A DNA stretch of 64,000 bases from an uncultured Bacillota bacterium (GCA_963823655.1 CAWGMK010000013.1:320001-384000); one strand, 5' to 3'; positions 9,847-34,650 are shown, numbered from the stretch's first letter. The notes: generated from the letters alone by a model not told the origin. Made by a program: numbers and translations.

Positions 9847-12088
9847 CTACGGTGTGACGGGAAGGAATATCGCAACGACGCCCACTATGATTCCCAGCAC
9901 GCCCAGTATCAGGCCGGTTATCCCAAGGCCCTTGATCTTCTTCATCTCCGCTTGCATGCTCTGATTCTGCTCCGCAAGCTGGCCCTCAAGGGACTTTATC
10001 TGGCTGTTGAGCTTGGCTTCCCTCTCCTGGGCCTGTATGTCTATGTCGTCCTTCTGGTCGATTGACGCCTTCTCCAGGTCCTTGAGCTTGGCATCGGTCT
10101 TCACTTGCATATCGGCAAGCTTCGCCTCAAGAGTCTCCTGCTTTATCTTCAGCCTGTTAAGATCGTCGCTCACTAACACCAGGAGCTTCGTCGTCGACTC
10201 GAGGTTGGATTTGAGAACATCAACCGAAGTCTCCAGCCTGGTAAGCCTGGACTCGATTGCCGCCACCTTCTCTTTAAGCGACGTTATGCTCGCGTTGGCG
10301 GTATCCATCGCCACCCTTAAGCCTGCTATCGAGAGGCCCAGCTCCGAATCTGCGTCCTGCAGCTCGATGGCGTTTCTTACTATCATAGCCTTGGAATCGG
10401 AGTCCACCTGGCTTATGGTGGCCTTCAGCTTCGCGATTTCGGACGTGAGCTTAGCATCCGAGTCAGCCCTTGTAGCCTTTTCCGCGTCGAGCAGCTGGAG
10501 CGCATTCTGGTATGATGTGCCCCCTTCCGCCGACAGGGCCGCCTTGAGTGCCGCCGCTTCCGTCTTTCTCTCCTGCTTCTCGTTCTCAAGTGCTAGCTGC
10601 AGGCCTGCCGCCGCCTTCTCTATATCGGCGCCAAGCACTTTGTTCAGCATTTCAAGCCTAGTCGCGGTAAGGACATCGGCATCGGCCCTGAACCTCGCCT
10701 CATCGCTTATCAGACCCTTTAGCGCCTCCACCGCCGATGCCAAATTCCTATCATTTTCTGCATCAGTTGAAGCCAGGTTCTTATCGTTTTCTGCGTCGGT
10801 TGATGCAAGCATCGCTGACAGGGAATCAAGCTTAGCCGACAGAGAATCAAGCTTTACTTCCAAAGCCTTCCTGCTGCTGCTCTCGGTCTCGATATAGGCA
10901 GAGAGGTTGGTGACGGCCTTGTCGATATCCTGCCCTAACGCGGCCTTTATCGCTTCAATCTCCCTGTCCATCGCGGCCAATTTGCTGTCAGTTTCGGCCA
11001 GCGCGGACTTCAGCCCGACTATTGAGGCATCGAGCTTCGCCGCCTTGCCATCGCCTTCTAGTTTGATTGCGTCCATCAGCTTCTGTGCGGCCGTCGCCTC
11101 ATCTGCCATAGCCTTGTTGAGCTCGGCAACCTGCACCTGCAGCGATTTGCCCCAGCTTTCCTCTACAGACTTTGAGGTCGGCATCGAAGCCGGCGGCCAT
11201 CGCGGCATGCTCCGCGCTCGCCCATTCCCTTAGGGACGCGACTGCTGATGCGAGATCCTCGGCCGTCTCGTCCTCCAGGGTTCCGACCCTGGTCTCGAGC
11301 GCCTTCCTGCTTGCAATCTCAGCTTCCAGGTAGTTAGACAGCTCGGTCACTGATTTGTCTATATCGTCGGACATAACCGCTTTAAGGGTTTCAAGCTCGA
11401 CCGACAGGCCGCTTATTACGGCATCAGTCTTGGCCTGCGCGCTCTCCAGCCCCTTAAGGGCTAAGCCTGTCTCTGCCTTGCTCTCATCGCCCTGCTTCTT
11501 CAATGAGTCGATGAGCTTCCTCTCGGCTGCCGCCTCTTCCTGCATGGCGACCATGAGAGCGGCTAACCCTTTCTCGGTGGTCTCAAGCGACTTGTCCATT
11601 GCGACTATACGTTCCGCTTGATCCTCCAGGTCATCCAGGATGCCTGCCGCTTCGGCCTTCCGCTCCTGCCTTTCGGCTGTGAGGGATTTGCCGGCCTCAA
11701 GCTCGGCCTTCTCGAGTTCTTTCACCCTTGTGTCGAGGGCGGCGAGCAGGGGCACCATCTCGCCTCTTAGCTCATTTGCCACCTCGCGCAGCACTCCCAT
11801 ATCCTCTTCGGTTGCCGTAACGGTCCCCTTTTCAAGGTCAGTAAGCATCTTTGATACTACGAATGCCAGCAGGTACCTGCTCACGGGCTCATCGCCCTTG
11901 AACGAGCCGTCATTGTAGACGCCAAGGTACCCCTTCTCTACCAGGCTCATAACCGCTTCATATGCCCAGTGGTCTTTGGTTATGTCGGTGACTACTGGCG
12001 CGGCAGCCGCCCCCAGCGACATGATAATAGCCATCATGATGCTTATGACCGCCACAATGCGGCCCTTTGATGAAAACATTTCAGGCAC
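9847..12088 (-). CDS. SLH domain + long coiled coil + C-terminal hydrophobic anchor protein (Omp-alpha-like; frameshift near 11172)
   Basis: Signal peptide, SLH motif DITKDHWAYEAV...FKGDEPVSRY, ~620 aa of heptad-rich Ala/Glu/Lys/Leu sequence, terminal GITGLILGVLGIIVGVVAIFL. Confidence 0.8.
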
Positions 12089-12097
12089 CTCCGGTCT

Positions 12098-14076
12098 CTA
12101 CTTTATTATCGCCATAAGGCCGTCGTTTTGAACCGGCAGCTGCTTTCCTGCCGCGTCGAAGGCCTTTACGTTCTCCATTCTTATTGTCATCCTGCCCGGT
12201 CCCGCAATTTTGAAATCTATGCTGGCTAACACCCCTGTCGGCTCCCCGCCGGGAAGGAATGAGCAGCTTATACCCCTGATGGCTTTGCCTTCGACCTTGC
12301 CTTGCACAAGTCCCGGGGAAGTGCCGTCGGGCAGTAGCATAAGAGCGCCTGCTGCAACCGGTTTGCGTCCAAGAAGGGCCAATGCCTCGCCCTCCCAGAC
12401 TATGTCGAACTCGATCTTGGCGACTCCTGAGAGCCTTAGGGCCGATACCTTCGCCTCTATGAAGCCGTCGCTGAAGGCGCCCAGCTCCAAGGATATGGAA
12501 CGCGTGGGGGAAGGCACCGATGCCGCCGACTGCGCCGCGACCTGCTTCACATTCGAGGCGGCCGCCTTCGCCTTGAACTGCACCGCCTGGGATCCGGGAA
12601 GTGGGGAAATGAACCAGGCGGATTCGTAGCTCATGCCCGGCAGGAAGTGCCCCAGCTGCCTTCCTTGTGAGTCTCCGGGAAGAAGCCTTGCTCCCGTCAG
12701 CTCCAAGGGAGGCCTCTGTCCAGTAGGCCGCCGAGTCGCCCAGGTTGCTTATCTGGGCTGTGACGGGATAGGATTCTTTCAGCGCTCCAGCTGCGTCAAG
12801 TTTTATCTCCGGGATTATCAACCTTAACGAAAGCCTTGGGGGTGAAAGTACCTCTACGGATCTGGTAATGGAATTGCCCTCAGCATTTGAGGATTCCGCT
12901 TTTAACTTCAGCTGAAGCGCGCCGAACGTCTTGCCGTCGGTCTTCAGCCTCCATGAAAGCTGGGTAATTGCACCCTGCTTCATATCCCCGACTGAGCGTA
13001 CAAGCTCCGATCCTGCCATGGGTTCAAGGCCTTTTGGCAGCTCAAGTGACACTTTAACATCGAGCGCCGGCCCTTTGCCCGTGTTTTGAATATATGCCAC
13101 AACGGTAAATGAGCTCTCCTGCCCCTCCTGAGGCGCCGCCACTTCCGCAGGCGCCGCAAGGCCCAGCGACAGGTTTCCGGGCGCCACTACTATGCCGCCC
13201 AGGCCGTAATAAGTCACAAGCGTTACTTGTGAGCCGGGCTGCAACACATAGCCGTCCCAGTACATCGCGGCCGCCGAGTCCAGGTCGAATTCGCCCTCTC
13301 TTGTGAAATCGCGTCCCGGCACCAAGCCTAACGTCCCACAGGCTGTCGGCGAAAGCTCCCCAGTTGCTGAAGATTACGGAACCCGGAGGAGTAAGCTCTT
13401 TGCCGATAAGCGTTGCCTGAGAAGTGACCGAAGGCTCTGCAAGGGAGTCGAAGGCCTGCCAGAAGTCTGGAAGCGTGCCGCCCGTAAAGTTCCTGTCCGA
13501 GACTATGGTGCTCTCGCCGGCCCTAAGTGGTGCGCCGTCATTCTTGCCCAGCATCGTATCGAGCATTAGCCTCAGCCCGACTGCTGCGGGCACAATTCCC
13601 TCGTTTTTCAGGGTGTAGGCGATCCTGACAGTGTCATTGTAGCCGGTCATGTGGTTCCTGGCGAATGATAGGTCCTGCGTGGCCCTTATATTCCCTAGCA
13701 TGTAGGAAGTCGTAATAGAGCTGCCCTTGGCGGCGGGCGCCACGGCTACTGAGCCGTACTTGCCCCCCGCTCCGGCCCTCTTCGAAGCTTTGCCGCCGAA
13801 TACCCAGTCCTGGCCGTCGATCCTGACAGTCGTATAGCTTGTCCAGGGCACCGGCCGCCCATATATCAGCGGCAGGTTGTCGTCATTCGGGTTTGCGGGG
13901 TCCCCCCCGGTAGTCTCGACGCCGAACCTGCCGTTCTCGCTCGTTTCAGCATTGACTATTATCTTTATGAACTCATTCGAAATCACAACAGACGAAGCGG
14001 CGCTCGCGGATATCGCGACTGCTCCCAGAAGGAGCGCCACCGCCGCTGTAAGTGCCAGGGTCCTTGCTCTGCTCAT
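12098..14076 (-). CDS. Secreted multidomain beta protein: N-terminal beta domain, two Ig-like domains, C-terminal cohesin-like domain (two frameshifts)
   Basis: Joined from ORFs 13054..14076, 12081..13325 and 12098..12706. Ig motifs VAYIQNTG and TAQISNLG; cohesin-like pattern IEFDIVW...GVLASIDFK...VKAFDAAG. Confidence 0.65.
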
Positions 14077-14090
14077 CGGGCATGCCCCTC

Positions 14091-14888
14091 CTAATCCAAG
14101 AATGAAGCACTGATAAAGCGCTGTTCGGTCCTGGCTACCGGCTGCATCCTGAACGACACTTCGATTACAACCTTGTAAGCCCTCTCGGCGCTTTTAAATG
14201 TCCAGTATCTTAATATCGTAAGTTCGGCGTTCTTCTTGAGCCACTCGTCATCCGGGCCGGATAGTATGCCTGTGGAGAGTATCTTGCCGTCAGTGCCTAC
14301 CTTAACTTCCACGACAACATCGCCCTCGCTCGCAGAGCTCTGCGACTCTTTGGGGTAGGCTACCTCCCGTTTGGAGGCCACCATCGCCTCTCCGGTGGGA
14401 TCGTCCCCGGGGAATGCCGGCCTTACCGGCTCGGGCTCCTGCTGAGGTTCCGGTTGGGAGGTTGCGGGGACTTCCGCGGCATTAGTGGCTTCAACCGGTT
14501 CGGTCTGCACCGCGACGCTGCCCGTTGGCGAAGTCAGCAGCTCATCGGCCTCTTGAGTTATTGGCTCCTTCACTACGGGCTTTATGCTGATGATCGGCTT
14601 TGTGCTCGGTTGAACGGCAGTCTGCGGGGGCTTTACCGTCTCCGGTTTCTTGACTTCGGCCTCCGTCACCGGCGGTTTGGGCTCCTCCTGCGGCAGCGCA
14701 TCCTGCTGCGTCGCATCATCCGGCTCGCCCTTCACCTGCTGCAGCTCGGCCAGCTCGACGACACCCGAGCCTTCAAGCGGCATAAGTTCCACGACGGGTG
14801 CCGGCTGCCATGGTATCAGCAGCAGCAGCGCATGGATCCCCAGTGAGACCAATATTGCCAGTATGTTGTTCGCGGCGCTCTTTTGCAT
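14091..14888 (-). CDS. tonB: TonB/TolA-family energy transducer
   Basis: N-terminal TM helix with SLGIH (SxxxH), Pro/Glu/Lys-rich linker, C-terminal YP...EGDVVVEVKVGTDG...WTF domain. Confidence 0.85.
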   Translation of the reverse strand: MQKSAANNILAILVSLGIHALLLLIPWQPAPVVELMPLEGSGVVELAELQQVKGEPDDATQQDALPQEEPKPPVTEAEVKKPETVKPPQTAVQPSTKPIISIKPVVKEPITQEADELLTSPTGSVAVQTEPVEATNAAEVPATSQPEPQQEPEPVRPAFPGDDPTGEAMVASKREVAYPKESQSSASEGDVVVEVKVGTDGKILSTGILSGPDDEWLKKNAELTILRYWTFKSAERAYKVVIEVSFRMQPVARTEQRFISASFLD

Positions 14889-15313
14889 CAGTTGACGCCT
14901 CCAGGCTCCCCTGCCGGTGTCCTTTCGACTGCAAGCGCAAGGTGGACCCCTCCGCCCAGCCTCACAGCATCTACTATGGCTATTAGCTGCTCATACGTTA
15001 CGGATTTATCCGCTTTGATGGCGAAAAGCTCCTCTGCGTCCCTCTCTAACGCCCCTTTGACCTTATCCGCAATTCCTGTGATGTCGGTTGCCTCTTCGCC
15101 GAAGAAGATGCCCCCTTCGGAATCGATCGAGACCATGACGATATCGGAGGCGAGCTCTTTTGGCGTCGCAGCCCTGGGAAGCTCGAGCGGCATTCCTGTG
15201 GTGTTCGTCCTAAACGAGGTGAAGATCATGAAGAAGAAGATCAGGTAGCACATCATATCCACAAGGGGTATGAGGTCCACCCTGGGCTTCCTCTTTCTCC
15301 TTGCGATATTCAT
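14888..15313 (-). CDS. exbD: ExbD/TolR biopolymer transport protein
   Basis: DLIPLVDMM TM segment with the essential Asp, LELPRA and IKADKSV motifs. Confidence 0.92.
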   Translation of the reverse strand: MNIARRKRKPRVDLIPLVDMMCYLIFFFMIFTSFRTNTTGMPLELPRAATPKELASDIVMVSIDSEGGIFFGEEATDITGIADKVKGALERDAEELFAIKADKSVTYEQLIAIVDAVRLGGGVHLALAVERTPAGEPGGVN

Positions 15314-15930
15314 CAGGATTCCCTCCCGCCGTCTTGTATGATGTCCACGATCTCGTGTTCTGAGTTGATCATCATTGCGACATGCCTGTCAATCTGGGCC
15401 GTCAGGAAGCTGTGCCCCAAAACGGTGGGGGCTGCCACTATAAGGCCGGCAGCGGTGGTGATGAGCGCTTCCGCTATTCCGCCTGCCAGCTGTGATGGCG
15501 CCGTTATGCCTCCTAGGGCATTCAGCACGTTGAAGCTTCTGATCATGCCGGTTACAGTGCCCAGCAGCCCCAGTAGAGGGGCGATGGTCGCCGTGGTCTC
15601 AAGCACGAGCATGTTCTTCTCCATGTTGTAGACTTCGTTCTGCGCGGTCCTTTCGAGGATCTCCTTCAGCGCGTCCTTATCGACGTCGTGCGCCTGCAGC
15701 GCCACCCTTGCCATGGCGGCGACCGGGCCTCTGAAGCTTCGAAGCATAGTCAGAGCCTCGAGGCTTCCTCCTTTGAGGTATGAGTTGCGCAAAGTCTTCA
15801 GGACTTTCTCCGGATCGCTGGGCAATATGCCAAGCTGTATTACTTTGATGATAATCACTGCCAGTGAGAATACGGAGCTGAGTAGTATCGGGTACATAAC
15901 CCAGCCGCCCATGCGAAATAGCTCAACCAT
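15313..15930 (-). CDS. exbB: ExbB/TolQ/MotA proton channel protein
   Basis: APLLGLLGTVTGMI and GIAEALITTAAGL motifs. Confidence 0.92.
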   Translation of the reverse strand: MVELFRMGGWVMYPILLSSVFSLAVIIIKVIQLGILPSDPEKVLKTLRNSYLKGGSLEALTMLRSFRGPVAAMARVALQAHDVDKDALKEILERTAQNEVYNMEKNMLVLETTATIAPLLGLLGTVTGMIRSFNVLNALGGITAPSQLAGGIAEALITTAAGLIVAAPTVLGHSFLTAQIDRHVAMMINSEHEIVDIIQDGGRES

Positions 15931-15956
15931 CTCAATACCTCCACAGATAAGATGTG

Positions 15957-17756
15957 CTAGTCGACCCTCTCAAATAAACTAAACGTCGCTTCTTCCCCTT
16001 TAGTCACGTTTCGGGGGCCGTTAACACCAGAAATACTGTTCTTTTCCCAAGCCTTTAACATCGTATTGGCATGTTGCAGCGCTTCTTTACTAACAGAGCC
16101 TGAGAGCATCCTTGCTATCTCCTGCGACCTTGCATCCTCCTCAAGGCTAACTGCTGAGACGAAGGAGCGCTCCCCGTCATCGGATTTTACTATCAGCATG
16201 TGCCTGTTTGCGGCGGCTGCGATCTGGGCGATGTGAGTAACTGCAAGCGCCTGGGCCCCCGCCGAAACCTCTTTCAGCTTGGCTGCGACGTGGTTTGCGG
16301 CGGCACCGCCCACGCCCTGGTCCACCTCATCGAACACCATCACGGTGTCGTTTTCCTGATGCTTCATTCCGGCGACCTTGAATGCCAGCATGAAGCGTGA
16401 AAGCTCGCCTCCGGAGGCCACTTTGGCAAGTGGCTTGGGATCCTCCCCCACATTGGCCGAGAAAAGGAATTCTACCTTCTCCAGGCCCGATAAGGAGGCC
16501 CATTTGCCCTCGCCCGCATCGAAACCTTCCGATCCGGTTCTAGCTGATAACGAGGCTACGAATCTCGCCTTGGGCATCATAAGCTCTGTAAGCTGCCTTT
16601 CGACCAGTCCCGACAGGTCTTGCGAGGCTTTCTGCCTTGCCCCGCTCAACTGGTCCATCAGGCTTAGCATTATTGACCTTTTCAATTCCAGGTCCATCCT
16701 TGCAGAATCGGTGCGGATTTCGAGCTCTCTTAGCTCCGCCGCCTCCGCCTTGCATCTCTGGCAGAAAGCGCCCAGCTCATCGGCCTCAAGCCCGAACTTC
16801 CTCTTCATTTTGCCTATGTCGGCGAGCCTTCCTTCCACCTCGGCGGCCCTGGCGGGGTCCAGGTCCAGTGAATCGCGAATCCTGCGAGCAGCCTCCGCCG
16901 CATCGGTTAGGGCATCCACTGCAGCCGCAAGAGGATCAAGGGCGTCTTTCACATCTAAGCCCAACCTGCCTGCCGAAATGATGCCATCAAGCGCTGACCT
17001 GGCCAAATCAAGGGCAGAATGCTCGTCGGATCCCGTTTCGTAAAGCGCGGAGTATGCCAAAGAGAGCGCCTCGAACAGCTTGCCGGAGTTAGCGAGCACC
17101 TTGGCCTCGGCCAGGAGCTCAACCTCCTCGCCGGGTTTGACGGATGCGTCATCCAGTTCTTTTATCTGATACTCCAGAAAGTCCAGCCTCGACTGCCGGT
17201 CCTTGGCCTTAGCCATAAGTGAGTCCAGCCCGTCTGCCGCCTGCCTCCATGACTTGAATGCCTCAGAAGAGCCTTTCAAGAAACCTTTGCCCTCTTCGGT
17301 GAGGAAAGTGTCAACTGCGGTAAGCTGAGCCGCGGGCCTTGTCATGCCCAGCCCGTCGTGCTGCCCGAAGATGTCGATTAGGCTTTCGGCGACTTGGGCG
17401 AGCTCGCCTGCGCTCACCAGCGTCCCGTCAATCCTGGCCCTCGATTTGCCGTTTTTCTGGACCTCGCGGGAAAGAATCACTATGCCCTGGGCATCTACAT
17501 CCAGCTCCAGGGCCGCAAGGGCGGCTTTGGCCCTTTCGTTATATGTTATGTCGAAAGCCGCCTCTACTGCGGCGGCTTCGGTGCCCCTTTTGACATTTTG
17601 CGCATCGGCCCTGCCCCCGGCGATGAGCGCCAGGCAGTCGACTATGAGCGACTTGCCGGCCCCCGTCTCGCCCGTCAGCACATTCAGGCCTTTTGCGAAT
17701 TCAAGCTCTATGTCGTCAATCAGGGCGAAATCCTTGACTTTCAGCGACTTGAGCAT
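15957..17756 (-). CDS. recN: DNA repair protein RecN
   Basis: TGETGAGKS, ASGGELSR, FDEVD and THIAQIAA motifs. Confidence 0.96.
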   Translation of the reverse strand: MLKSLKVKDFALIDDIELEFAKGLNVLTGETGAGKSLIVDCLALIAGGRADAQNVKRGTEAAAVEAAFDITYNERAKAALAALELDVDAQGIVILSREVQKNGKSRARIDGTLVSAGELAQVAESLIDIFGQHDGLGMTRPAAQLTAVDTFLTEEGKGFLKGSSEAFKSWRQAADGLDSLMAKAKDRQSRLDFLEYQIKELDDASVKPGEEVELLAEAKVLANSGKLFEALSLAYSALYETGSDEHSALDLARSALDGIISAGRLGLDVKDALDPLAAAVDALTDAAEAARRIRDSLDLDPARAAEVEGRLADIGKMKRKFGLEADELGAFCQRCKAEAAELRELEIRTDSARMDLELKRSIMLSLMDQLSGARQKASQDLSGLVERQLTELMMPKARFVASLSARTGSEGFDAGEGKWASLSGLEKVEFLFSANVGEDPKPLAKVASGGELSRFMLAFKVAGMKHQENDTVMVFDEVDQGVGGAAANHVAAKLKEVSAGAQALAVTHIAQIAAAANRHMLIVKSDDGERSFVSAVSLEEDARSQEIARMLSGSVSKEALQHANTMLKAWEKNSISGVNGPRNVTKGEEATFSLFERVD

Positions 17757-17783
17757 GCGCACCTCCTGGTGCGAAGATTATTT

Positions 17784-18236
17784 CTATCTTCTAAGGGAAT
17801 CCAGCTTCCTAACAACCTCGGCGACTGCCTCTTTGGGCTTAACGACCATGAATATGTTGTCGTCGCCGGCAAGCGTCCCCATGATTTCCTTCCAGCTGAG
17901 CTCGTCGAGCACGGCGGCAACCGCATGGGCGGCCCCGATTACGGTCTTAATCACGACCAGGTTCTCGCTGTCTTGAATGCTGACTACGTCGTCCTTCATG
18001 ACTCGCTCGATCCTTTTATTCAGGTTCTCAAGGTTGCGCTCCTCAGGGGCAGTATATTTATACCTGCCGTTGCTTGCGGGCCCCTTGACCAGCTCAAGCT
18101 CCTTAAGGTCCCTGGAGACGGTGGCTTGCGTGACTTCTATGCCGTCTGCTTCAAGCAGCATGGCTAGCTGCTCCTGCGTCTCAACGATATGGGTCCTAAT
18201 CAGCTCAAGTATTTTCTGGTGACGTCTGTGCTTCAT
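17784..18236 (-). CDS. argR: Arginine repressor
   Basis: TQATVSRDLKEL and GTLAGDD motifs. Confidence 0.96.
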   Translation of the reverse strand: MKHRRHQKILELIRTHIVETQEQLAMLLEADGIEVTQATVSRDLKELELVKGPASNGRYKYTAPEERNLENLNKRIERVMKDDVVSIQDSENLVVIKTVIGAAHAVAAVLDELSWKEIMGTLAGDDNIFMVVKPKEAVAEVVRKLDSLRR

Positions 18237-18261
18237 CAGAACACCCCTCAATCAGCGTTTG

Positions 18262-19116: not shown

Positions 19117-19134
19117 GCTGCACCTCCTTGGTGT

Positions 19135-21836: not shown

Positions 21837-21837
21837 T

Positions 21838-23030: not shown

Positions 23031-23040
23031 TATATATATA

Positions 23041-23478: not shown

Positions 23479-23489
23479 GCCGATACCCC

Positions 23490-24605: not shown

Positions 24606-24628
24606 ACCGTCCACCTCCGTAAATCTTG

Positions 24629-26820: not shown

Positions 26821-26832
26821 GGTGATGGCCCC

Positions 26833-27309
26833 TTACTTGGACTTTAGCTCTTCGGCCAGCTTGCCGACTATTCCGTTTATGAAGCGCGGGCTGTCCTCGC
26901 TTCCGAATGTCTTGCCCATCTCTATGGCCTCATTGATCGCAACAGCCAGGGACATGCCCTCTATATGGGTCATCTCATACACTGCGATTCTCATGATGTT
27001 GCGGTCCGTGAATGCCATCCTGTCCAGGGACCAGTCCTTGGAGATACGGGAGATCACCAGGTCTATCTCGTCGATTTCCTTTTTTACGCCCTGAATTAGC
27101 CTCTTTGCGTAATCCGTGGAAAGCTCGGATACCTCGCCCGCCACCTCCGGGGAAACCGCGTATTTATAGGCCAGCTCCTCATCGCCCCCGGACAAATCGA
27201 GCTGGAACAGCGCCCTTAGCGCGCACTCCCTGGCCTGCCTCGCCTCTTTGGGATTCATCGCCGCCTTCGAGCGGAGTTCACCGACTTCCAGCAATATAGT
27301 TTCACTCAT
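26833..27309 (-). CDS. nusB: Transcription antitermination factor NusB
   Basis: ARECALRALFQ, WSLDRM, AINEAIE and FINGI motifs. Confidence 0.95.
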   Translation of the reverse strand: MSETILLEVGELRSKAAMNPKEARQARECALRALFQLDLSGGDEELAYKYAVSPEVAGEVSELSTDYAKRLIQGVKKEIDEIDLVISRISKDWSLDRMAFTDRNIMRIAVYEMTHIEGMSLAVAINEAIEMGKTFGSEDSPRFINGIVGKLAEELKSK

Positions 27310-27550
27310 CCTCTCCATCGTCCTCGCCGAACATTCCGAACAGTTTGCCCAATGCCCCTTTAATCTCGGAATTGCTGTCTATTAGCACGCCGAGGACGAA
27401 GCCTATGAAGGAGAAGGCAGCTATCACCATGGCCTTCCAGAAGCCGAATATGGCCATGAAAAGGCCGAAAAGCAGGCCCAAAGCCAAGCCTGTCGCCTTG
27501 GCCGAATTCCTCTTGCTCCACCATCTTCCGAAACCGCCGTTTGAGAACAT
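27302..27550 (-). CDS. DUF2273 small membrane protein
   Basis: Two TM helices with FGFWKA; asp23-amaP-DUF2273-nusB synteny. Confidence 0.8.
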   Translation of the reverse strand: MFSNGGFGRWWSKRNSAKATGLALGLLFGLFMAIFGFWKAMVIAAFSFIGFVLGVLIDSNSEIKGALGKLFGMFGEDDGEDE

Positions 27551-27575
27551 GACTTCTTTGCCTCCTTAGATGCGC

Positions 27576-28091
27576 CTAGACAGCGCTTTTGATAAATGTC
27601 CTGACGGACTTTACCGGGAAGCCGCTCTGGGCGGGAAGGGCCTCTTTGATGCGCGCCTCCAGTTTTGATGTCAGCTCGGGCAGTATTGCCCCCTTTGCCG
27701 CGGTGACCTTCAGCGTAATATCCAAGCCTTCCTTGCCCGGCTTCGCGTTCAGGGAGACGTCTTCGACGCCCTCTACCTCTTTGGCGAGGTTCTTGGCAAA
27801 GGCCTCTATCGTTCCTACTGAGACGAATATATCCCCGGTCTCAGTCGTGCGCTTCAACAGCCTGCCCATGCCCTTACTGGTCCTGAAGGCCAGCTCTAAG
27901 AGGTAGACCATCATCAGCATGACGACAACCTGGAATATGAAAGCCGCATACCAAGTTGACATAAGTATCTCGTACAACCAGTCTCCCGCGGCGTAGATCA
28001 GGCCGCCTATATGGCTGGAGAAAGCCATAAGCGACAGAACGGCCAACAGGATTGCAGCGATAAATACCATCAATCTGTCGATAAATTTCAT
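27576..28091 (-). CDS. amaP: Alkaline shock response membrane anchor AmaP-like protein
   Basis: MKFIDR start, two TM helices, Asp23-like C-terminal domain; synteny. Confidence 0.75.
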   Translation of the reverse strand: MKFIDRLMVFIAAILLAVLSLMAFSSHIGGLIYAAGDWLYEILMSTWYAAFIFQVVVMLMMVYLLELAFRTSKGMGRLLKRTTETGDIFVSVGTIEAFAKNLAKEVEGVEDVSLNAKPGKEGLDITLKVTAAKGAILPELTSKLEARIKEALPAQSGFPVKSVRTFIKSAV

Positions 28092-28107
28092 TCTGTCACC
28101 TCCGAAG

Positions 28108-28500
28108 CTATTTCGTTGCCATCGCTGTCTTCATGCCGGCGGGGGCGCATCCGAAATCAACGCCTATTACGTGAACGTTGACCGTGCCCACGGTAAGGCC
28201 GAGCATGCTCTCTATGGAGCGTTTTACGTTCTGCTGAACCTTCGTGGCGACCTCCTTGATATTCTCCCCGAAGTTCACGGAAAGGCTTACGTCGCAGATC
28301 GCGTTATTGTCCTGTATCTTAACCTTGACGCCCTTTGAGATGTTCTTCTTGTTCTTGGGCCCGCTGCCAACATTGTATACGCCCTCTACCTCTATGGCGG
28401 CAAGGGCGGCAACGACGCAGATAACATCGTTGTTAATCTTTACGCCGTCGCTGGTGTAGTCGACCTCCTTGGCAGGCTTTACGGCCTTCTTCTCAGCCAC
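28108..28500 (-). CDS. Asp23/Gls24 envelope stress protein
   Basis: KINNDVI...EVEGV, KGVKV and VNVHV motifs. Confidence 0.9.
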   Translation of the reverse strand: MAEKKAVKPAKEVDYTSDGVKINNDVICVVAALAAIEVEGVYNVGSGPKNKKNISKGVKVKIQDNNAICDVSLSVNFGENIKEVATKVQQNVKRSIESMLGLTVGTVNVHVIGVDFGCAPAGMKTAMATK

Positions 28501-28529
28501 TTGTCATTCCTCCAAATCGCGAGAGTCTG

Positions 28530-29087
28530 CTAGACCCTCTCCAGGTACTTGTTTGTCCTGGTATCGACCCTTACCTTCTCGCCCTGCTGGACGAAAAGGG
28601 GCACTTGTATGACGGCACCTGTCTCAAGCTTCGCAGGCTTAGTCCCGCCAGATGCGGTATCGCCCTTGAGGCCCGGATCAGATTCAACGATAACTAGCTC
28701 TACGAAGTTGGGAAGGTCTATGCCAACGACCTTGCCCTGGTAGAGCTGCACGGCCAATTCCATGTTCTCTTTTAGGTATTTAAGCGCATCGCCCAGTCTT
28801 TCCTCGGTAAGGCCGATCTGCTCGTAGTTCTCCTGGTCCATGAATATATACTGCCCGTCGCTTTCGTACAGGTACTGCATCCTCCTGAAATCGATCTGGG
28901 CTTTGGCAAGCTTCTCGCCTGCGTTGAATGCGTTTTCTATAGTGGAGCCTGATATGATGTTACGAAGCTTCACCCTGACGAATGCCGCGCCCTTGCCGGG
29001 CTTGACATGCTGGAAATCAATAACGGTCCAAATCCCGCCGTCCCATTCTACGGTAAGTCCTGTCCTGAGGTCATTAGTGGAAACCAT
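28530..29087 (-). CDS. efp: Elongation factor P
   Basis: HVKPGKGAAFVR, PGLKGDT and VPLFV motifs. Confidence 0.97.
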   Translation of the reverse strand: MVSTNDLRTGLTVEWDGGIWTVIDFQHVKPGKGAAFVRVKLRNIISGSTIENAFNAGEKLAKAQIDFRRMQYLYESDGQYIFMDQENYEQIGLTEERLGDALKYLKENMELAVQLYQGKVVGIDLPNFVELVIVESDPGLKGDTASGGTKPAKLETGAVIQVPLFVQQGEKVRVDTRTNKYLERV

Positions 29088-29105
29088 GTGCAAAACCCTC
29101 CCGAA

Positions 29106-30167
29106 TTAAAGCTCAATCAAATGTTTGGGGGCCTTGTATAGCACTTCGGCCTCCCCAGCTGTGATGATGACCATATCCTCGATCCTCACGCCGCCCCAGC
29201 CCGGCAGATATATCCCAGGTTCCACTGACAGGACCATGCCCGGTACTATGTCTGTATCGTCGGTTACCGAGAAGCGCGGTTCCTCATGAATCTCCAGGCC
29301 GACCCCGTGTCCGGTTCCATGCCCGAAGTACTGCCCATATCCTTTAGATTCTATCACTTTCCTAGACTTACTGTCCACTTCCTTGCCCTTAATCCCGGCC
29401 CTTGCAGCCTTGATGCCCTCCAATTGCGCTTCAAGCACAATGGAGTATATTTCCTTCTGCTTTGCGTCTGCCTTACCTAGACAAACAGTCCTTGTCATAT
29501 CGGAGGTGTAGTAGTCGAAGAAGCCGCCGAAGTCCATGGTTACCAGCTCGCCCTTGTTCATCACCTTGTCCGATGCCCTGCCGTGCGGCAGCGCCCCTCT
29601 TTCGCCAGAGGCGACTATTGTACCGAAGGATGACCTCATGCCGTTTCTTATCATCCATATGTCTATCTCGGATGCCAGCTGGATTTCGGTCATCCCGGGC
29701 TTCAGGGTATCCAGTATGTGGTCGAAGAGCTTGTCGGTCAGCTTGCAGGATTTCCTTAGAGTGTCGAGCTCGGCCGCTTCCTTGACTACTCTGAGGCCCT
29801 CAACTGCACCTTTTACGGCTACCAGCTCGATGCCATCGGCACATGATTCGAACATGGAGAACTCCTCTACGCTCAAATCGGATGCCTCGAAGCCGAGCTT
29901 CTTAACCCCAAGCGCCTTTGCCTGGCCCATTATCTCCTTGTAATATGCGCCGGCCCCGTGCGTGATGACGTCAAAGCCTTTCGCCTGAGCGCCCGCCTGC
30001 TCCGTATACCTGAAGTCAGTAATAAGCTTCAAGCCGTCGGCAGATACCACAAGGGCGCCCGCCGAACCTGTAAAGCCGCTAAGATACATCCTGTTTACTC
30101 CCTTGGTTACCAGCATGCCGTCGATTTTCAGGCCCTTAAGCCTTTTCTGCAGCTTTTTCGATCTCAT
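29106..30167 (-). CDS. Xaa-Pro aminopeptidase (M24 family)
   Basis: YLSGFTGS, SDMTRT, HGTGHGVGLEIHE and EPGIY...GVRIED motifs. Confidence 0.93.
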   Translation of the reverse strand: MRSKKLQKRLKGLKIDGMLVTKGVNRMYLSGFTGSAGALVVSADGLKLITDFRYTEQAGAQAKGFDVITHGAGAYYKEIMGQAKALGVKKLGFEASDLSVEEFSMFESCADGIELVAVKGAVEGLRVVKEAAELDTLRKSCKLTDKLFDHILDTLKPGMTEIQLASEIDIWMIRNGMRSSFGTIVASGERGALPHGRASDKVMNKGELVTMDFGGFFDYYTSDMTRTVCLGKADAKQKEIYSIVLEAQLEGIKAARAGIKGKEVDSKSRKVIESKGYGQYFGHGTGHGVGLEIHEEPRFSVTDDTDIVPGMVLSVEPGIYLPGWGGVRIEDMVIITAGEAEVLYKAPKHLIEL

Positions 30168-30181
30168 AAGTGCCAACCTCC

Positions 30182-30217
30182 AAAAAATAAGTGGCCCTCA
30201 CCTTGATGAGGGCCACT
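30182..30217 (-). terminator. Intrinsic terminator after the secretin gene
   Basis: 11-bp stem AGTGGCCCTCA/TGAGGGCCACT followed by TATTTTTT on the minus strand. Confidence 0.8.
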
Positions 30218-30230
30218 CCGGGTAATCGCT

Positions 30231-33200
30231 CTAGAGCACGGGGCCCTTGATTTCGACTATACCATCCTTGAGTCCTGTTGTCTGCCCCGGCTTGATTATC
30301 CACGCTGTAATCACGATGATGATCTCCTGGTCCTTGGTATCCGTGCCGCGCTTTGTGAACAGCTCCTTGATAAGAGGGATGTCGCCGAGTATCGGCACCT
30401 TGGTTATGGTCTCGATCTCCTCCTGGCTGAACAGGCCGCCGATTATCGCCGATTTGCCGTTCTTGACCGTGACTATAGTCTCAAGCTCCCTGGTCCTTAT
30501 CTGAGGGTAGTTCTGCGGCGTCCAGCCGATGATAGAGCTTATTATCGGCTTCACTTCTGCCGTTATGCTGCCGTCGTAGCTGACCTTAGGCAGTATGGTA
30601 AGCTCGATGCCGGCGTTGATGTACTCAACTGTGTTGACTACCTGTCCTTGATCGACGTTCTGCACAATGACTGGTATCCTGTCGCCGATCAGCATCCTGC
30701 CTGCCTTGCCGTCCACAGTATAGGTGTGCTGCTTGGATATCAGCTTGGCCTTGCCCTCATTGGCGAGAGCGGCAATCTTATTGTCGAAGTCCAGGCTCAC
30801 TGTTGCCAGCTGGGACAGCGTATTGTAGCCGAATACCAGCTTGTTGATCGTCCAATCGATGCCCAACCTCTTGGTAGCGTCACCCGACAGCTCGTAGAGG
30901 CTTGCTTCGAAGAACACCTGGGCGAGTTCCTGGTCCAGCTGATCGATGATTTCGACCAATTGAGCCTGCTCGCTGGCCTTGGCCGTGACGATTAGCGAGG
31001 AGGTCCTGGTATCGATCGAGACCTTGCCTGTGGTCACTTCGCCCAGTGCCGCCTTGAGGTCCGCGGGCTCGGCGTGGTTGAGCTTGTATACTCTTGTGAC
31101 CGATGCGTCTGCGTCCACCGATACCTGCGTTACGCTCTTTACATCAAGGGTGGCAATCACTTCTGCCGCCAGCTTCTGAATCTCGGGAACGGCCTTGATG
31201 ATAAGAGTTCCGCTCCTGTCGTCAGGCAACATCGAGCTTGCGGGAAGCAGTATGGTAAGCGCTGAGCTTATCTCAGTCGGAGAGGCATTGTTAAGCTTGT
31301 AGGTCTTGTATTCGGCAGAGCTCCGCCGAGACGTCCTCGGGCGACTTGATGTCGATGTCCAGCTTGGATATTACCTCTTCGATGAGTGCCAGCTCGCTTT
31401 CGGTGCCGTACACTATCATGCTGTTCGTTCTCTCAGCCACCTGAATTTTGGCAGAGGACGCTACCAGCTTCACCGGCGCTTCCATATCTTTTGCGCTGGC
31501 GTACTTGAGCTGGAAGAAGCCCAACCTGACAGGATCGCTAAGTAGAACTGCCGCTTGAGCGACCGGAACGTCCAAGGCCGAGATTATGGTCATAGCCTGG
31601 GATTTTAGCTCCGGTGTGACTATCAGCATAACCTTATTGGTGCGCTCGTTGATGGAGATCTTCGAAGCGGGAAGCAGTACTGACAGCGAGGCCCTTACAT
31701 CGGCAGCACTGGCGTTTGTAAGCTGTACGACTTCAAGGGTCTCTCTCACAGCCGCTGCCACGGCCCCTCTTTCAATAGGAGCTACATCAAGCTTGGCTAT
31801 GAGGCTTTCAATCATCTTGAGCTCCATGGAAGTCCCATATGCCGTTATGCTTGAAGTCGGGTCGGCCGCCTGGATCTTGGCTTCACCAGCTACCACTTTG
31901 ACGGAAGCTTCGATGTCAGAAGGCTTTACATTATATAGCTTGTAGAAGCCCATCGACACCGTCTCGGTAGTCTGGGCGACTTCTCCGTCGAGCCTTATGT
32001 CCAGCTCGGCGATGATCGCCATTGCCTGTGAGAACTCCTCGTCCGTGACGTTCATTATTATCTTGTTGGTCCTGGCGTCTACGTTGATCTTGGCGCCAGA
32101 TATCACGGCTTCAAGGGCCTTGCCTACTTCTACGGCGGGGGCGTACTTCAGCTGTACTATCTGCAGAGCCTCGACTCCGGTCGCCAAGGCGACTACTGGC
32201 TGCACTTTTGGTGCAACTTCGACGTCCAGGTTGCCGATTATGTCCAGGGCTACTGCCTTGCCTGCAGGAGTCACCATGACGATGACCTTGTTGGTGCGCT
32301 CGTCGATGTTGACGTTGGCGGCGCCCAGCACCCCGTCCAGGACTCTCTTCACGTCCGCTGCGACGGCGTATTTCAGCTGTACCATTTCGAGAGTAGGCTC
32401 GATAGTCGCAACCGCAGTGGTGGCGACGGGCACGTCGAGGGCGCTGATGATGCTCATGGCAAGCTGCTTCTTCGCCGGTGTTACGATCATCAGTACCTTA
32501 TTGCTGCGATCGTCTACGCTTACCTTGCCCTGTCCAAGGGCTGCGTCCAGCGCCGGTTTCACGTCAGCAACTTTAGCGAACTTAAGCTCTACTACCTCAA
32601 GGTTTTCAACCTCGACCGGAGCTACCGCTGTATCTATCCTTACATCCAGTTCATTGATGACGGCCATAGCAAGCAGCTTTTCCTCCGGGGTGACCTTCAA
32701 AAGCAGCTTGTTGGTCCTCTGGTCTATTGATATGCTCGACGGCGCAAGTACTGCGGCAAGTGCCTTTTGTACGTCGGCGGCCTGAGCGTACTTGAGCTGC
32801 ACTACTTCAAGCGAGCTTATGGCTGGCTTGACGGATACTGAAGCCATCTCTATGTCCAGGTTCTGTATGATCTGGGCTGCTAGGGCTCTCTCATCAGGAG
32901 TGCCCAGTATGATTACCTTGTTGGTGCGCTCGTCGATGTTGACCTTGTCTGGGCCTAGAACACCGTCTAATACCTTCTTGGCGTCAGCGGCGTTGGCGTA
33001 TGTTAGGTTCATCACCTCAAGGCTGGGAACCACTGCAATAACGGCCGGCTGGTCCACCTTTACATCGATTGCGCCGATTATCTCCATAGCCATCAGCATC
33101 TCAGCCGGTGTTACCTTAAGCAGGACCTTATTTGTCCTCTCATCAATAGTCACATTCTCGGCGGGAAGCACTGATGCCAATGCCTTCTGTACGTCGGCGG

Positions 33201-34650
33201 CCATTGCGTGCTTGAGCTCAACGACCTCCATGGACACTGCCGGTTGTATTGCTGCAGCGTTCTTCACTGAGAGCGCCTCTTCGTCGAGCTTCTTGAGAGC
33301 CTCAGCAATTAGCGCATGGTCGGCATCTGTGCCGTAGGCTACAAGGCTGTTGTTGCTTTCGATCACCTGCAGCTTGGCTCCGGATGCGACAAGCCTCACG
33401 ACTGCTTCGATATCCTGGGCTTTGGCGTGCACCGGGCTGTAATAGCCGAGCCTTAGGATAGGAGCTGCCACGGACGCAACAGCAGCTACATCTGCGACTT
33501 TGACGTCCAGCTCCTTTATTAGGGCCATTGCCTCGGCGCTTTTTGCGGCGTCGACGAGCATCACTATCTTGTTTGTGCGCTCATCTATCGCGATCTTATT
33601 TGCGGGCAGGACGACGGTCATGGCTTCCGCCACATCCGCGACTTTCGCATATAGAAGAGTCACTACTTCAAGCTTCTCCTGGACAGTAGCCACGGCGGCT
33701 GATTTCGGTGTAGCGGCCTCAATGTTCTTCACAAGGTCGCTTACCCTGGTGTATTCCTCAGGAGTCGCTTTGATGATTAGCGTATTGCTCTTTGCGTCCG
33801 CCTGTATCCTATCGGCGGGGATTATTAGTGAAGCTACAGCCTTTACTTCGGCTGCGGCAGCGTTAGTCAGTTGTATGACGCGGATCTCCACCGGTTGAGT
33901 AGTGACTGATTCAGCTTTCTTTACGATGTCAAGTTTCTCAATGATGCTCCTGGCAGCCTTTACGTCAGTCAGCTTGCCGCCGGCGAGTATCGCATTGAGC
34001 CTTGTATCAACCGCAAGCGACGCCTTCAGCAGCTTGGATACTGCGTCAAATACGCCCTGTGCCTCTGCGTTCGAAAGCTGGATTATATCGATTACTTCCT
34101 CTTCGGAGACGGTCATCTTGGTTACAGGCAAAGGCGCATCTACCTTGGCGAGGAACGCCTTGGCGAGCGCGATATCCGCCTGATTGCCCCTTATGAGCAG
34201 CGTGCCGGACTTGTCGTCTGGCTGGGCCGCTATTCCGGGGATGGCGAATGATAGCTTGGTCGCGGCATCAGTTGCGGAGATGTTCAACAGCTCTACTTTC
34301 TCCACTACTGCCTTGTCCATAAGCTTGCTGACAGTCCCCTTGGGGCCTACCATAATCGTTCCGTTCATATATATGTACTCAAGGTCTGACACGGAGCAGA
34401 TTATATCGAGTGCCTCTTCAACGGGTACGTTTGTCAGCTTGACCGTAATTTTGCCCGATACCGCCGGGCTTACTACTATATTGGATCCGCCTACTTGTGC
34501 GAGGACCCTGAATACTTCAGCTAGCTCCGCAAATTTCAAATCAAGGCTTACCTTGGCGGGCGAGCTCGCTGCGAATGAGCGCACGCCCAGCGTTAGCATC
34601 GCAAGTACCAGGGTTAGCGCAAATATCGCCCTAATCTTACTTGGCTTCAA
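30231..34650 (-). CDS. pilQ: Giant PilQ-like secretin, ~1470 aa, N0 plus 16 N-domain repeats (frameshift near 31315)
   Basis: Signal peptide, N0 (VSLDLKFAEL...VSGKITVKL), repeated LKYAxAxDV...IDERTNK...LD units, secretin domain (IGDRIPV, KVPILGDIPLI). The frames join as ...SAEYKTYKLNNASPTEI. Confidence 0.9.

Follow-up and report, generated by a model that had tools for sequence, protein, structure and literature searches.

Lpp, 58 residues long, is a lipoprotein attached covalently to the cell wall, and it is mainly through its engineering in enterobacteria that the control of membrane spacing has been tested. According to two reports (PMC8824477, PMC5771553), the length of this trimeric coiled coil sets the membrane-wall spacing in Escherichia coli, and the envelope machines must fit within it. 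In SlpA of Deinococcus radiodurans and Thermus thermophilus and in OmpM of Veillonella parvula, an SLH domain and a coiled-coil stalk are followed by a barrel, and stalk length has been read as matching the thickness of the periplasm (PMC9388160); in D. radiodurans the stalk measures ~28 nm, or ~190 residues, whereas that of Veillonella has ~85 residues (PMC9388160, PMC10628300). In Thermotoga maritima, as described in PMC10160955, Omp-alpha fibres of ~50 nm run from the wall to the toga in a periplasm of ~70 nm, which also holds tubes of ~80 nm resembling pilus machines. As for secretins, the six-ring PilQ of Thermus thermophilus (757 aa) is called one of the largest in PMC5745081, and the Thermus PilQ channel, as given in PMC4463427, is ~35 nm long and spans a wide periplasm.

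The locus studied here lies in a stretch of 64,000 nucleotides (GCA_963823655.1, CAWGMK010000013.1:320001-384000; hereafter the window) from the genome (G000) of an uncultured bacterium labelled Bacillota in public records. It encodes a long SLH-anchored tether and a long type IV pilus secretin (Table 1), and a third long protein is encoded on another contig, C10. Our preferred reading, to which we assign a probability of roughly 0.6 from the sequence evidence, is that the distance from wall to outer membrane, ~65-125 nm depending on the species, is set by a pair of SLH-anchored trimeric coiled coils, and that the secretin stack has been extended to match. As part of this reading, the lineage would be double-membraned, with an LPS-free envelope like that of Thermotoga. 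The first spacer would be the window's rod, an SLH trimer held on a pyruvylated wall polymer, with ~630 helical residues (~94 nm if straight) and its C-terminal helix at the outer-membrane end; the second would be the SlpA/OmpM-like protein of C10, and both would form parallel, three-stranded coiled coils. The sole type IV pilus secretin would have grown to 17 rings (~65-90 nm) and would extend inward from the outer membrane in the direction of the inner-membrane platform. We propose that the lengths of rod, stalk and secretin shift together because all three must fit one gap. The sequences show the domain layouts, the shared changes in length and the gene content; how the rod is oriented, how straight the rods are and how wide the gap is are inferred from them.

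Table 1. Features of the window, in positions counted from its first nucleotide.
Feature	Position	Strand	Evidence or remarks
Omp-alpha-like tether gene	9847..12088	-	ORFs, translation, Pfam, landmarks; alignment to the G001 orthologue continuous across the break
Tether C-terminal hydrophobic helix, small-xxx-small pattern	9856..9912	-	Best 19-residue hydrophobic window, residues 727-745, tail TP
Extra base splitting the tether gene	11169	.	Absent from every covering contig, runs X1, X2, X3; X4 without coverage
Tether SLH domain	11876..11989	-	PF00395, 35.1 bits, above cut-off; G000:C13:331876-331989
Large secreted CARDB-domain protein	12081..14076	-	Directly upstream of the tether gene, overlaps tether start; split by two single-base insertions (12707, 13324)
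TonB-like (265 aa), ExbD, ExbB, ordinary length	14091..15930	-	Pfam and family searches
Type IV pilus secretin (PilQ-like)	30231..34650	-	Two frames as assembled; 1470 residues with X
Secretin C-terminal pore domain	30291..30770	-	PF00263, E=1.6e-38; G000:C13:350291-350770
Periplasmic stack, N0/STN + 16 N1-like (Secretin_N) domains, contiguous, ~72-75 residues each	30902..34572	-	Pfam and own HMM
Secretin frameshift, approximate	31330..31345	.	Frame 1 ends ...SPEDVSAE; frame 2 resumes as a regular N-domain start
Remaining type IV pilus cluster: 197-aa protein, PilN, PilM (split), prepilin peptidase, PilC (split), PilT-like ATPase, PilB (split)	34647..43149	-	Pfam scan

The assembly splits the single tether gene into two reading frames, ORF 11099-12088 (329 aa) and ORF 9847-11208 (453 aa); read through with an X at the break, they give 747 residues. 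These comprise, in order, a signal peptide, one SLH domain, a coiled-coil rod of ~630 residues containing one proline, and a C-terminal membrane helix, which agrees well with the coiled-coil tether of ~620 residues described by the first-pass annotation. The N-terminus is a hydrophobic signal-like segment ending in an Ala-rich motif, and a search of the translation for a lipobox found no cysteine within or beyond it; the SLH domain occupies residues 34-71 (PF00395, E=1.3e-7 in the Pfam scan), and the stretch from the DHWAY motif to the C-terminal hydrophobic helix measures 688 residues, with a 2-residue tail after the helix. The likeness to Lpp is functional only, the rod being without a lipobox cysteine, SLH-bound and ~10 times longer. 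Its neighbours are the CARDB-domain gene and a small cytochrome gene, and no barrel gene is adjacent.

That earlier annotation had read across two frameshifts, in the rod and in the secretin. The base at 11169, the exact site of the rod frameshift, is absent in the three public runs that cover it (3/3), and single bases are also absent in other runs' contigs at 12707, 13324 and 20363, the first two in 4/4 runs. Breaks of this kind interrupt many other genes of the window, namely dxs, pilM, pilC, pilB and the one for the CARDB protein. Because the contigs of other runs are without those bases, the breaks look like 1-base insertion errors, and the break in the rod gene is probably such an error of assembly. 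This comparison covered the rod break and the sites up to 20363. As regards the secretin break at ~31335, the order has 16 other genomes with a match at E<=1e-40, and in 12 of them the secretin runs in one uninterrupted frame of 1204-1775 codons, the remaining four being fragments at contig ends.

The rods of the class are helical and show coiled-coil periodicity: the hydrophobic period is 3.56-3.65 in five of them, their heptad scores are 0.37-0.42 (0.24-0.26 for shuffles), and the rods read across species contain 0-1 proline. In an AlphaFold2 monomer model of the intact orthologue from the relative G001, 514 of the 524 residues between 68 and 591 are helical (helices 68-176, 184-398 and 402-591), with breaks of only 7 and 3 residues; these might be hinges, in a model whose confidence is low (pLDDT 63.7, pTM 0.20). 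A model of three copies of the mature rod, restricted to residues 1-280, supports a parallel in-register trimer: it gave an ipSAE of 0.64 (best control 0.00), which passes a mark that 20 of 30 solved pairs, but also 1 of 23 single chains, attained, and its runs share at least 69% of contacts with a partner pLDDT of at least 81. The predicted contacts are in register (i to i) over about residues 77-279, with SLH-SLH contacts in addition, and the model is straight over 200 residues. Since solved SlpA and OmpM trimers exist, the pass may reflect likeness to them. The rod profile matches D. radiodurans SlpA in the PDB (7zgx, E=1.5e-20, profile positions 4-256, covering SLH and coiled coil) and Veillonella OmpM (8bys and 8bym, ~1e-10). 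No NCBIfam family scored above its cut-off for the rod, and the ESM Atlas held no entry for it. It had also been claimed that both long proteins were extended by internal duplication, and for the rod we found residues 175-271 again at 321-417 (38-49% identity, E 1e-15 and 7e-10). This repeat emerged from a search with 80-residue segments, whereas self-BLAST of whole proteins gave the diagonal only; the segment search found no recent internal repeats in the rods.

In architecture the tether resembles Omp-alpha (OmpA1), with an export signal, a single N-terminal SLH domain, a coiled-coil rod and a C-terminal hydrophobic helix, although sequence homology is shown to SlpA/OmpM only. At ~630 coiled-coil residues the window's rod has roughly double the length of Omp-alpha (~320, as estimated from the ~45 kDa given in PMC10160955), and its gene does not stand beside a barrel (omp-beta) gene. 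Compared with SlpA and OmpM, the SLH domain and the coiled coil correspond, but the rod ends in a single membrane helix, with no barrel at its C-terminus, where theirs end in a barrel.

The barrel is found in the protein encoded on contig C10 (G000:C10:450094-453719), which, in addition to the Omp-alpha-like tether, follows the full tripartite SlpA/OmpM plan: an SLH domain, a stalk of ~570 residues and a C-terminal region, ending in F, that is predicted to form a barrel of ~28 strands. In the predicted structure of the C-terminal 565 aa of the G001 orthologue (pLDDT 79.9) there are ~28 long beta strands, and every Foldseek match to it was a large outer-membrane barrel, SlpA entries ranking 2nd, 3rd and 9th; no NCBIfam family scored above its cut-off for this protein. 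Stalks in the class are ~420-750 residues long, well beyond those of D. radiodurans and Veillonella. A phylum-wide search with the G001 barrel found it in 4 of 151 genomes, all of the same class, and the sample cannot be extended through the barrel because it is too divergent.

Tether lengths were compared across the 21 species genomes of the class (the same 21 make up the order), a set of related MAGs in which several genes are cut by contig ends. The coiled-coil length of the rod spans ~440 to ~830 residues and is tightly correlated with that of the stalk (n=14, r=0.93; phylogenetic contrasts r=0.94, with sign agreement in 13/13). Without G002 and G004 the correlation rises to r=0.994 (n=12), and with two outgroups added it is r=0.986 (n=15) with a slope of 0.91 and an intercept of ~0. 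The stalk of G002 holds a run of N (this genome is dropped in the n=12 and n=15 sets), and the N-terminus of the G004 stalk was estimated. Left out of this comparison were G006, where no stalk was found; G013, where no rod was found; G011 and G017, whose stalks are split or cut; and G016, G019 and G020, whose rods are fragmentary. We set aside gene conversion between the two proteins as a source of the co-variation, given an identity of only ~25% outside the SLH domain.

The C-terminal helix of the rod admits another placement. In textbook topology, a Sec signal peptide together with a hydrophobic helix at the C-terminus marks a protein held in the cytoplasmic membrane by a stop-transfer anchor, and we know of no pathway that inserts an alpha-helical C-terminus into the outer membrane. 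The rod might then set the distance from inner membrane to wall and the stalk that from wall to outer membrane, in a periplasm close to their sum whose two compartments scale together. We regard this arrangement as unlikely. Basic residues stand just N-terminal of the helix, with only 2 residues beyond it, and in each of the 17 rods read the 19-residue hydrophobic window is followed by a tail of 1-8 residues, most of them uncharged, which is the reverse of the positive-inside rule; the hydrophobic window and short tail recur in 5/5 outgroup rod homologues. Proportionality of rod and stalk with an intercept near zero is expected for one gap, with no reason to arise from two independent ones, and Omp-alpha, of the same architecture, has been imaged between wall and toga (PMC10160955). 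Finally, the summed gap of 170-230 nm would lie far above the 65-110 nm estimated for the secretin tube, although a secretin shorter than rod plus stalk need not span everything. The rod probably spans the distance from wall to outer membrane and not the whole envelope.

The secretin is likewise one gene in two frames (ORFs 31291-34650, 1119 aa, and 30231-31232, 333 aa). Pfam recognises STN/GspD_N0, 14 + 2 Secretin_N stretches and one Secretin domain (PF00263 at residues 155-314 of the second ORF, E=9.9e-38 in the ORF scan), the only match to that domain in the G000 genome. With our own repeat HMM we counted 17 N-type domains, N0 and 16 others, in agreement with the 17 previously reported. The 16 N1-like domains share a mean identity of 29% (best pair 57%), which bears out the duplication claimed for this protein too. 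The intact G001 orthologue scores 284.5 bits against TIGR02515 (cut-off 284.35, a marginal pass) and 263.3 bits against the GspD model, below its cut-off of 351.35; from the window, the 333-aa piece only was scored against TIGR02515 (139.5 bits). The ESM Atlas returned ordinary secretin clusters only. Relatives' secretins carry 12-21 rings, and recent growth is visible in G004, where a 1092-nt block of five domains is repeated at 100% identity, and in G012, where a 462-nt block is repeated at 98.7%. The sequences indicate that the secretin is lengthened by tandem block duplication of N1-like domains. As in Thermus, this is a pilus secretin whose stacked N-rings would reach deep into a wide periplasm, with pilMN and pilBTC alongside (Pfam hits PilM_2, PilN, T2SSF, T2SSE and Peptidase_A24 at 35.8-43.1 kb); it differs in its ring count, 17 against six, and in its contiguous, block-duplicated N1-like units of ~73 residues. 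The 197-aa protein in the PilO/P position had no family match in Pfam, nor in NCBIfam above cut-off.

Tether and secretin lengths, whose correlation across related genomes with phylogenetic contrasts had been suggested as a check, are positively related (rod length and residues in the periplasmic part of the secretin: r=0.81, p=0.003, n=11; phylogenetic contrasts r=0.93, sign agreement 8/10; genus only, n=5, r=0.997). The value falls to r=0.73 without G004 and to r=0.68 when its perfect five-domain duplicate is counted once, and families f2 and f4 alone give r=0.80 (n=6, p=0.057). This comparison leaves out G015 and G020, whose secretins are cut by a contig end; G006, G013 and G014, which gave fragments; G005 and G017, in which no secretin was found; G008, with a short secretin only; and G016 and G019, whose rods are fragmentary. 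The correlation appears moderate and fragile, coming from few and related genomes. Moreover, G021 and G023, with rods of 384 and 460 residues, have PilQ-like secretins of merely 409 and 402 codons, the only secretin recovered from G008 (rod 594, stalk 533) is 499 aa long, and short second secretins (483-535 aa) accompany long rods in G001, G004 and G012. Scaling of the secretin with the rod is not general, and this counts against strict coupling. The proposal that the lengths co-evolved as rulers of a wide envelope is supported, within these limits: the co-variation, the stalk (r=0.99) and the Thermotoga-like genes favour it, and the short secretins of G008, G021 and G023 speak against it.

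The slope amounts to one ring per ~45 rod residues, or 6.7 nm if the rod is straight, which exceeds a ring pitch of 3.5-5 nm, where 3.5 nm is the lower figure for secretins. The upper figure of 5 nm is derived from the Thermus PilQ channel (PMC4463427), and with it the tubes of G001, G000 and G004 would measure 75, 90 and 110 nm, beside rods of 78, 94 and 124 nm. The slope, nearly twice the straight-rod prediction, fits a periplasm of ordinary width, in which the coiled coils would be tilted, folded at hinges or spread flat along the wall in a sub-membrane mesh, side-by-side packing or co-assembly would account for the co-variation of rod and stalk, and the extra rings would serve DNA or pilus handling or form a vestibule. 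Also consistent with it are the two short helix breaks of the monomer model, the Veillonella OmpM stalk, tilted and mobile with a compact form (PMC10628300), the fixed-length LptF/G-LptD fusion, the 265-aa TonB and the short secretins of relatives. We nonetheless judge it improbable. Three proteins of unrelated fold co-vary in length; N-domain rings are stacked along the channel axis in all solved secretins (PMC5745081), and a gap of ~25 nm therefore has no room for 17-21 of them; over 200 residues the modelled trimer runs straight with its chains in register, and the rods hold at most one proline. TolC/OEP, TamB, Plug-domain (TonB-dependent) receptors and flagellar rod genes, which would be fixed-length bridges, were not found in the G000 genome, and the TonB is a weak argument against a wide gap because no Plug-domain receptor was found.

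It is important to consider that every genome here is a MAG with non-independent kin, and that the G004 duplicate comes from a short-read assembly and may be an assembly loop counted twice. Together with genes cut at contig ends and the run of N inside the G002 stalk, this could mean that repeat-rich genes drift or are mis-assembled, and that the correlations reflect ancestry or chance with no functional coupling. We give this explanation very little credence. All 13 rod-stalk contrasts share their sign, and r=0.99 holds across two families and two outgroups; assembly loops cannot inflate the rods because these are without recent internal repeats, and G012, a long-read genome, fits the trend. 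Controls keep their length: the LptF/G-LptD fusion, matched in 21 genomes, has 1084-1142 codons in the 14 uninterrupted frames off contig ends (shorter frames being the split copy of G000, contig-end pieces and a broken match in G007), and the barrel and pore domains are constant as well. The constancy of the fusion also argues against our length-matching reading, as it seems too short to bridge ~100 nm, the same puzzle that Thermotoga presents.

The envelope gene set of G000 resembles that of Thermotoga, because BamA and CsaB are present and LpxC, TamB, TolC, TonB-dependent receptors and the flagellar rod were not found in its genome. BamA, the LptF/G-LptD fusion (a split copy in G000) and a CsaB-type pyruvyl transferase are shared with T. 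maritima, whose control genome likewise gave no LpxC or TamB match; G000 differs in having the full SlpA/OmpM-type fusion too and in its Bacillota label. Our literature search, mostly without subscription journals, found no account of quantitative co-variation of two tethers and a secretin, and no description of Omp-alpha homologues in Firmicutes.

More broadly, we suggest as possible, at somewhat less than even odds, that periplasm width is a fast-evolving species trait of ~65-125 nm, held by two SLH coiled-coil rulers matched in length within ~10%, with the secretin catching up by ring-block duplication; the perfect five-domain copy of G004 may capture one such duplication as it happens. On this view, if correct, a toga-like, LPS-free envelope would exist in a Bacillota-labelled lineage, and the Omp-alpha plan would be an old Terrabacterial route and not a speciality of Thermotogota. 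The class offers a natural series, with near two-fold differences in tether length between close species and a changing ring count, and since two unrelated-looking tethers are proportional, the ruler idea can be tested by imaging a few species or enrichment cultures. This would be the longest predicted SLH tether system, with a secretin among the longest linked to a pilus machine. If true, the Thermotoga-type envelope (Omp-alpha, LptF/G-LptD fusion, no LPS) extends to a lineage labelled Bacillota, which bears on the debate over outer-membrane tethering and loss in Terrabacteria.

Read through its frame break with an X, the SLH-anchored coiled-coil protein encoded in the window, here called the rod, has 747 residues, and its parts are listed with the other features in the table below. 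Without the SLH domain it is a coiled-coil rod of ~630 residues with one proline; the hydrophobic periodicity in five rods is 3.56-3.65 residues, between heptads and hendecads, and the heptad score of the rods is far above that of shuffles. The rod family profile matches D. radiodurans SlpA (7zgx, E=1.5e-20) across the SLH domain and the coiled coil, and also Veillonella OmpM. In all 17 rods read, the terminal helix is preceded by basic residues and followed by 1-8 mostly uncharged tail residues, a charge pattern that is not that of a cytoplasmic-membrane stop-transfer anchor. The intact rod of a related genome (G001) was modelled as a monomer from a 14-row alignment as a single long helix with breaks of 7 and 3 residues, at low confidence (pLDDT 63.7, pTM 0.20) and with an untrustworthy tertiary arrangement. 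When three chains comprising mature residues 1-280 were modelled together, they were predicted to form an in-register parallel three-stranded coiled coil over residues ~77-279, with the SLH domains forming a trimer atop it. The ipSAE of this model was 0.64, versus 0.00 for the best control; among solved pairs 20 of 30 reached the mark, among single chains one of 23. The runs of the model shared at least 69% of contacts, with partner pLDDT of at least 81. These values back a rod trimer, short of proof; as SlpA and OmpM trimers are already solved, the pass may reflect likeness to them.

Features in the window and in other contigs (window positions unless prefixed; G000 is the source genome and the window is G000:C13:320001-384000)
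Feature	Location	Strand	Remarks
Rod gene	9847-12088	-	
Rod N-terminus			hydrophobic, Ala-rich motif at its end
Rod SLH domain	residues 34-71		PF00395 (Pfam)
Rod body	conserved DHWAY motif to C-terminal 19-residue hydrophobic helix		688 residues, then only 2 residues
Tandem repeat in rod	10700-10800 (residues ~440-465)	-	11-residue unit, near-perfect
CARDB-domain protein gene	12081-14076	-	
TonB-like, ExbD, ExbB genes	14091-15930	-	
dxs	19937-21857		split
PilQ-like secretin gene	30231-34650	-	N0 + 16 N1-like domains; frame break at ~31335
pilM-pilD-pilC part	36000-41000		G+C 41-49%
SlpA/OmpM-like protein gene	G000:C10:450094-453719 (L068)		outside window; two frameshifts
Duplicated block, G004 secretin	L005:2388-4575		
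Second short secretins	L111 (G001:C29), L113 (G004:C58), L112 (G012:C3)		

The first-pass annotation had described both the rod and the secretin as extended by internal duplication. For the rod this holds, although the event is old: residues 175-271 match 321-417 at 38-49% identity. The near-perfect 11-residue tandem repeat listed in the table marks a small recent length change. Beside the rod gene, its start overlapped by the stop of its neighbour, lies the gene of a large, secreted CARDB-domain protein, and the two may be co-transcribed.

Beyond the rod, SLH domains occur in five further frames of the source genome, spread over four loci. One of these, on contig C10 (8 kb from BamA and 6 kb from an LptF/G gene), encodes a protein with a signal peptide and an SLH domain, followed by a ~570-residue stalk and a C-terminal part of ~550 residues ending in F; the stalk is built from Pro-rich linkers and coiled-coil segments and contains tandem repeats of 37-47 residues. 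In the G001 orthologue, the last 565 residues were modelled with ~28 long beta strands (pLDDT 79.9, pTM 0.67), and every structure that Foldseek returned for this predicted barrel was a large outer-membrane barrel; SlpA entries ranked 2, 3 and 9, and TM-scores were low (0.38-0.48). The C10 protein is a SlpA/OmpM-type tether and, to our knowledge, its stalk is by far the longest of that type.

The secretin, read through, has 1470 residues, in which Pfam identified STN/N0, 14 + 2 Secretin_N stretches and one Secretin domain, and our custom repeat HMM found 17 N-type domains that directly follow one another, each ~72-75 residues long, the number counted in the first-pass annotation. No other gene of the source genome matched the secretin domain, and the pilB, pilT, pilC, pilD, pilM and pilN genes lie directly upstream of this one; the intact G001 secretin passes the NCBI PilQ model marginally (284.5 bits, cut-off 284.35). 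Growth of the secretin by recent block duplication is seen in two relatives. In G004, a 1092-nt block of five domains is tandemly duplicated at 100% DNA identity inside an 89-kb short-read contig, and this copy reflects a very recent expansion or, alternatively, the assembler's loop count; in G012, a long-read genome, a 462-nt block is repeated at 98.7% identity. Over the pilM-pilD-pilC part of the cluster the G+C content is down from ~57%, which could point to replaced or imported DNA, or to pilin genes.

It is necessary to consider the quality of the source assembly (2.3 Mb, 13 contigs, 97% complete), in which the window genes lie almost throughout on the minus strand, with overlapping ORFs in different frames and many split genes (dxs, pilM, pilC, pilB, the CARDB gene, the rod and the secretin). 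We aligned contigs from four other public metagenome runs, representing related populations 90-99% alike for most pieces, to positions 11001-31000. Base 11169 is missing in all three covering runs, bases 12707 and 13324 in all four, and base 20363 in two, being present in a third covering run; single bases at 17781 and 23558 are likewise missing in contigs of other runs. The missing bases fall where the reading frames of the rod gene, the CARDB gene and dxs break, so that these breaks most probably represent 1-base insertion errors in the assembly, or at most a strain peculiarity, and not gene decay. The source assembly has a systematic indel problem, which splits these three and other genes.

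We compared the lengths of the three proteins across the 21 species genomes that our collection contains for the class, the same set as for its order, taking each gene wherever it was found. Rods were measured from the DHWAY motif to the terminal helix (498-888 residues), stalks from the HWA motif up to the first strand of the barrel (465 to ~800), and secretins both by the number of N1-like domains (11-20) and by the residue span that begins with N0 and runs to the last N-domain; Pfam and custom domain counts agree (G001 13/13, G004 19/20, G000 16/16). The results are given below.

Length correlations among rod, stalk and secretin (G021 and G023 are outgroups; f2 and f4 are families of the class)
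Comparison	Set	n	r	Remarks
Rod vs stalk	all pairs	14	0.93	
Rod vs stalk	contrasts, RecN tree		0.94	13/13 same sign
Rod vs stalk	without G002 and G004	12	0.994	
Rod vs stalk	with G021 and G023, without G002	15	0.986	slope 0.91, intercept ~0
Rod vs secretin periplasmic residues	all pairs	11	0.81	p=0.003
Rod vs secretin	without G004	10	0.73	p=0.017
Rod vs secretin	genus only	5	0.997	
Rod vs secretin	other families, f2+f4	6	0.80	p=0.057
Rod vs secretin	G004 duplicate counted once	11	0.68	p=0.02

The G002 stalk contains a run of N, and the first 89 residues of the G004 stalk, lost at a contig end, were estimated. The positive correlation of rod with secretin length that the first-pass annotation had expected was found both directly (r=0.81, n=11) and with phylogenetic contrasts (r=0.93, 8 of 10 of the same sign), where the G002-G004 pair dominates; since the G004 copy is possibly a loop count, the comparison was rerun with the duplicate counted once. 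Rod lengths are not assembly loops, because no recent repeats were seen in the rods. Rod sequences evolve fast: the G004 and G002 rods share 44-50% identity despite close RecN proteins. As a control, the LptF/G family match lies in frames of 1084-1142 codons independent of rod length, and the barrel and pore domains are also constant in length.

Several genomes argue against strict coupling. The PilQ-like secretin has only 409 codons in the outgroup G021 (rod 384, stalk 284) and only 402 in G023 (rod 460, stalk 403), and in G008 (rod 594, stalk 533) the only secretin found has 499 aa. In addition, G001, G004 and G012 carry an additional short secretin of 483-535 aa with one Secretin_N, whose gene directly adjoins that of a DUF6531 (Rhs-associated) protein and which may be a separate export device; none was found genome-wide in the source genome. 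Because these secretins are short beside long tethers, a secretin can do without a long ring stack even in a long-tether cell. Within the class, the slope is one ring per ~45 rod residues; for a straight rod this amounts to 6.7 nm, more than the ring pitch derived from Thermus (~5 nm, from 35 nm and seven tiers) or the ~3.5 nm of T2SS secretins. At 5 nm per tier, tube and rod would measure 75 and 78 nm in G001, 90 and 94 nm in G000, and 110 and 124 nm in G004, so that tube and rod lengths agree within about 15%, which is not a proof.

Regarding other envelope genes, the source genome has BamA, a CsaB-type pyruvyl transferase and an LptF/G-LptD fusion, with which the LptF/G frames in all relatives are consistent. 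A fixed-length fusion across a wide gap is a puzzle common to this class and Thermotoga. LpxC, TamB, TolC/OEP, a Plug-domain receptor and a flagellar rod protein were not found in this 97% complete genome, a negative result that does not prove their absence; they include fixed-length bridges, which would be useless across ~100 nm. The same searches in a T. maritima control genome gave the same pattern except for TolC and flagella. TonB-like, ExbD and ExbB genes are present in the window of this genome, where no TonB-dependent receptor was found.

The rod, the stalked barrel and the secretin are each variants of known proteins, namely Omp-alpha, SlpA/OmpM and PilQ. Thermotoga Omp-alpha has the same layout as the rod, with a signal peptide, a single SLH domain, a long coiled coil and a C-terminal membrane helix (PMC9388160), and has been imaged as fibres between the wall and the toga (PMC10160955). 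The C10 stalk compares with stalks of 28 nm in D. radiodurans (PMC9388160) and ~85 residues in Veillonella (PMC10628300). Thermus PilQ, with six rings and a channel of ~35 nm (PMC4463427), has been termed one of the largest secretins, and is said to bridge the greater part of a wide periplasm (PMC5745081). The association of long stalks and numerous rings with a wide periplasm has been published for Deinococcus-Thermus and Thermotoga (PMC9388160, PMC10160955, PMC5745081). Our search of the accessible literature found no such system in a lineage labelled Bacillota, no report of both tether types coexisting and no quantitative co-variation of tethers and secretin; stalk architectures are tabulated with PMC9388160 (Table S2) and PMC10160955 (Dataset S3), and these lists might include relatives of these proteins. 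The gap predicted here from sequence is wider than the ~50 nm fibres of Thermotoga (PMC10160955).

The N-terminal trimers of both SLH proteins should bind the wall polymer, and the outer membrane must be where the stalked barrel ends. The rod is 1.1 times the stalk length across a 2.3-fold range, and given this constant ratio it would most simply span the same gap as the stalk, its terminal helix lying where the gap meets the outer membrane; we infer the width of that gap, the straightness of the rod past the first 200 residues and the membrane receiving its helix. At the established coiled-coil rise of 0.1485 nm per residue, the predicted wall-to-outer-membrane gap would measure ~94 nm here and, over the class as a whole, 66-124 nm, and the secretin ring stack would be the conduit letting the pilus machine work across it.
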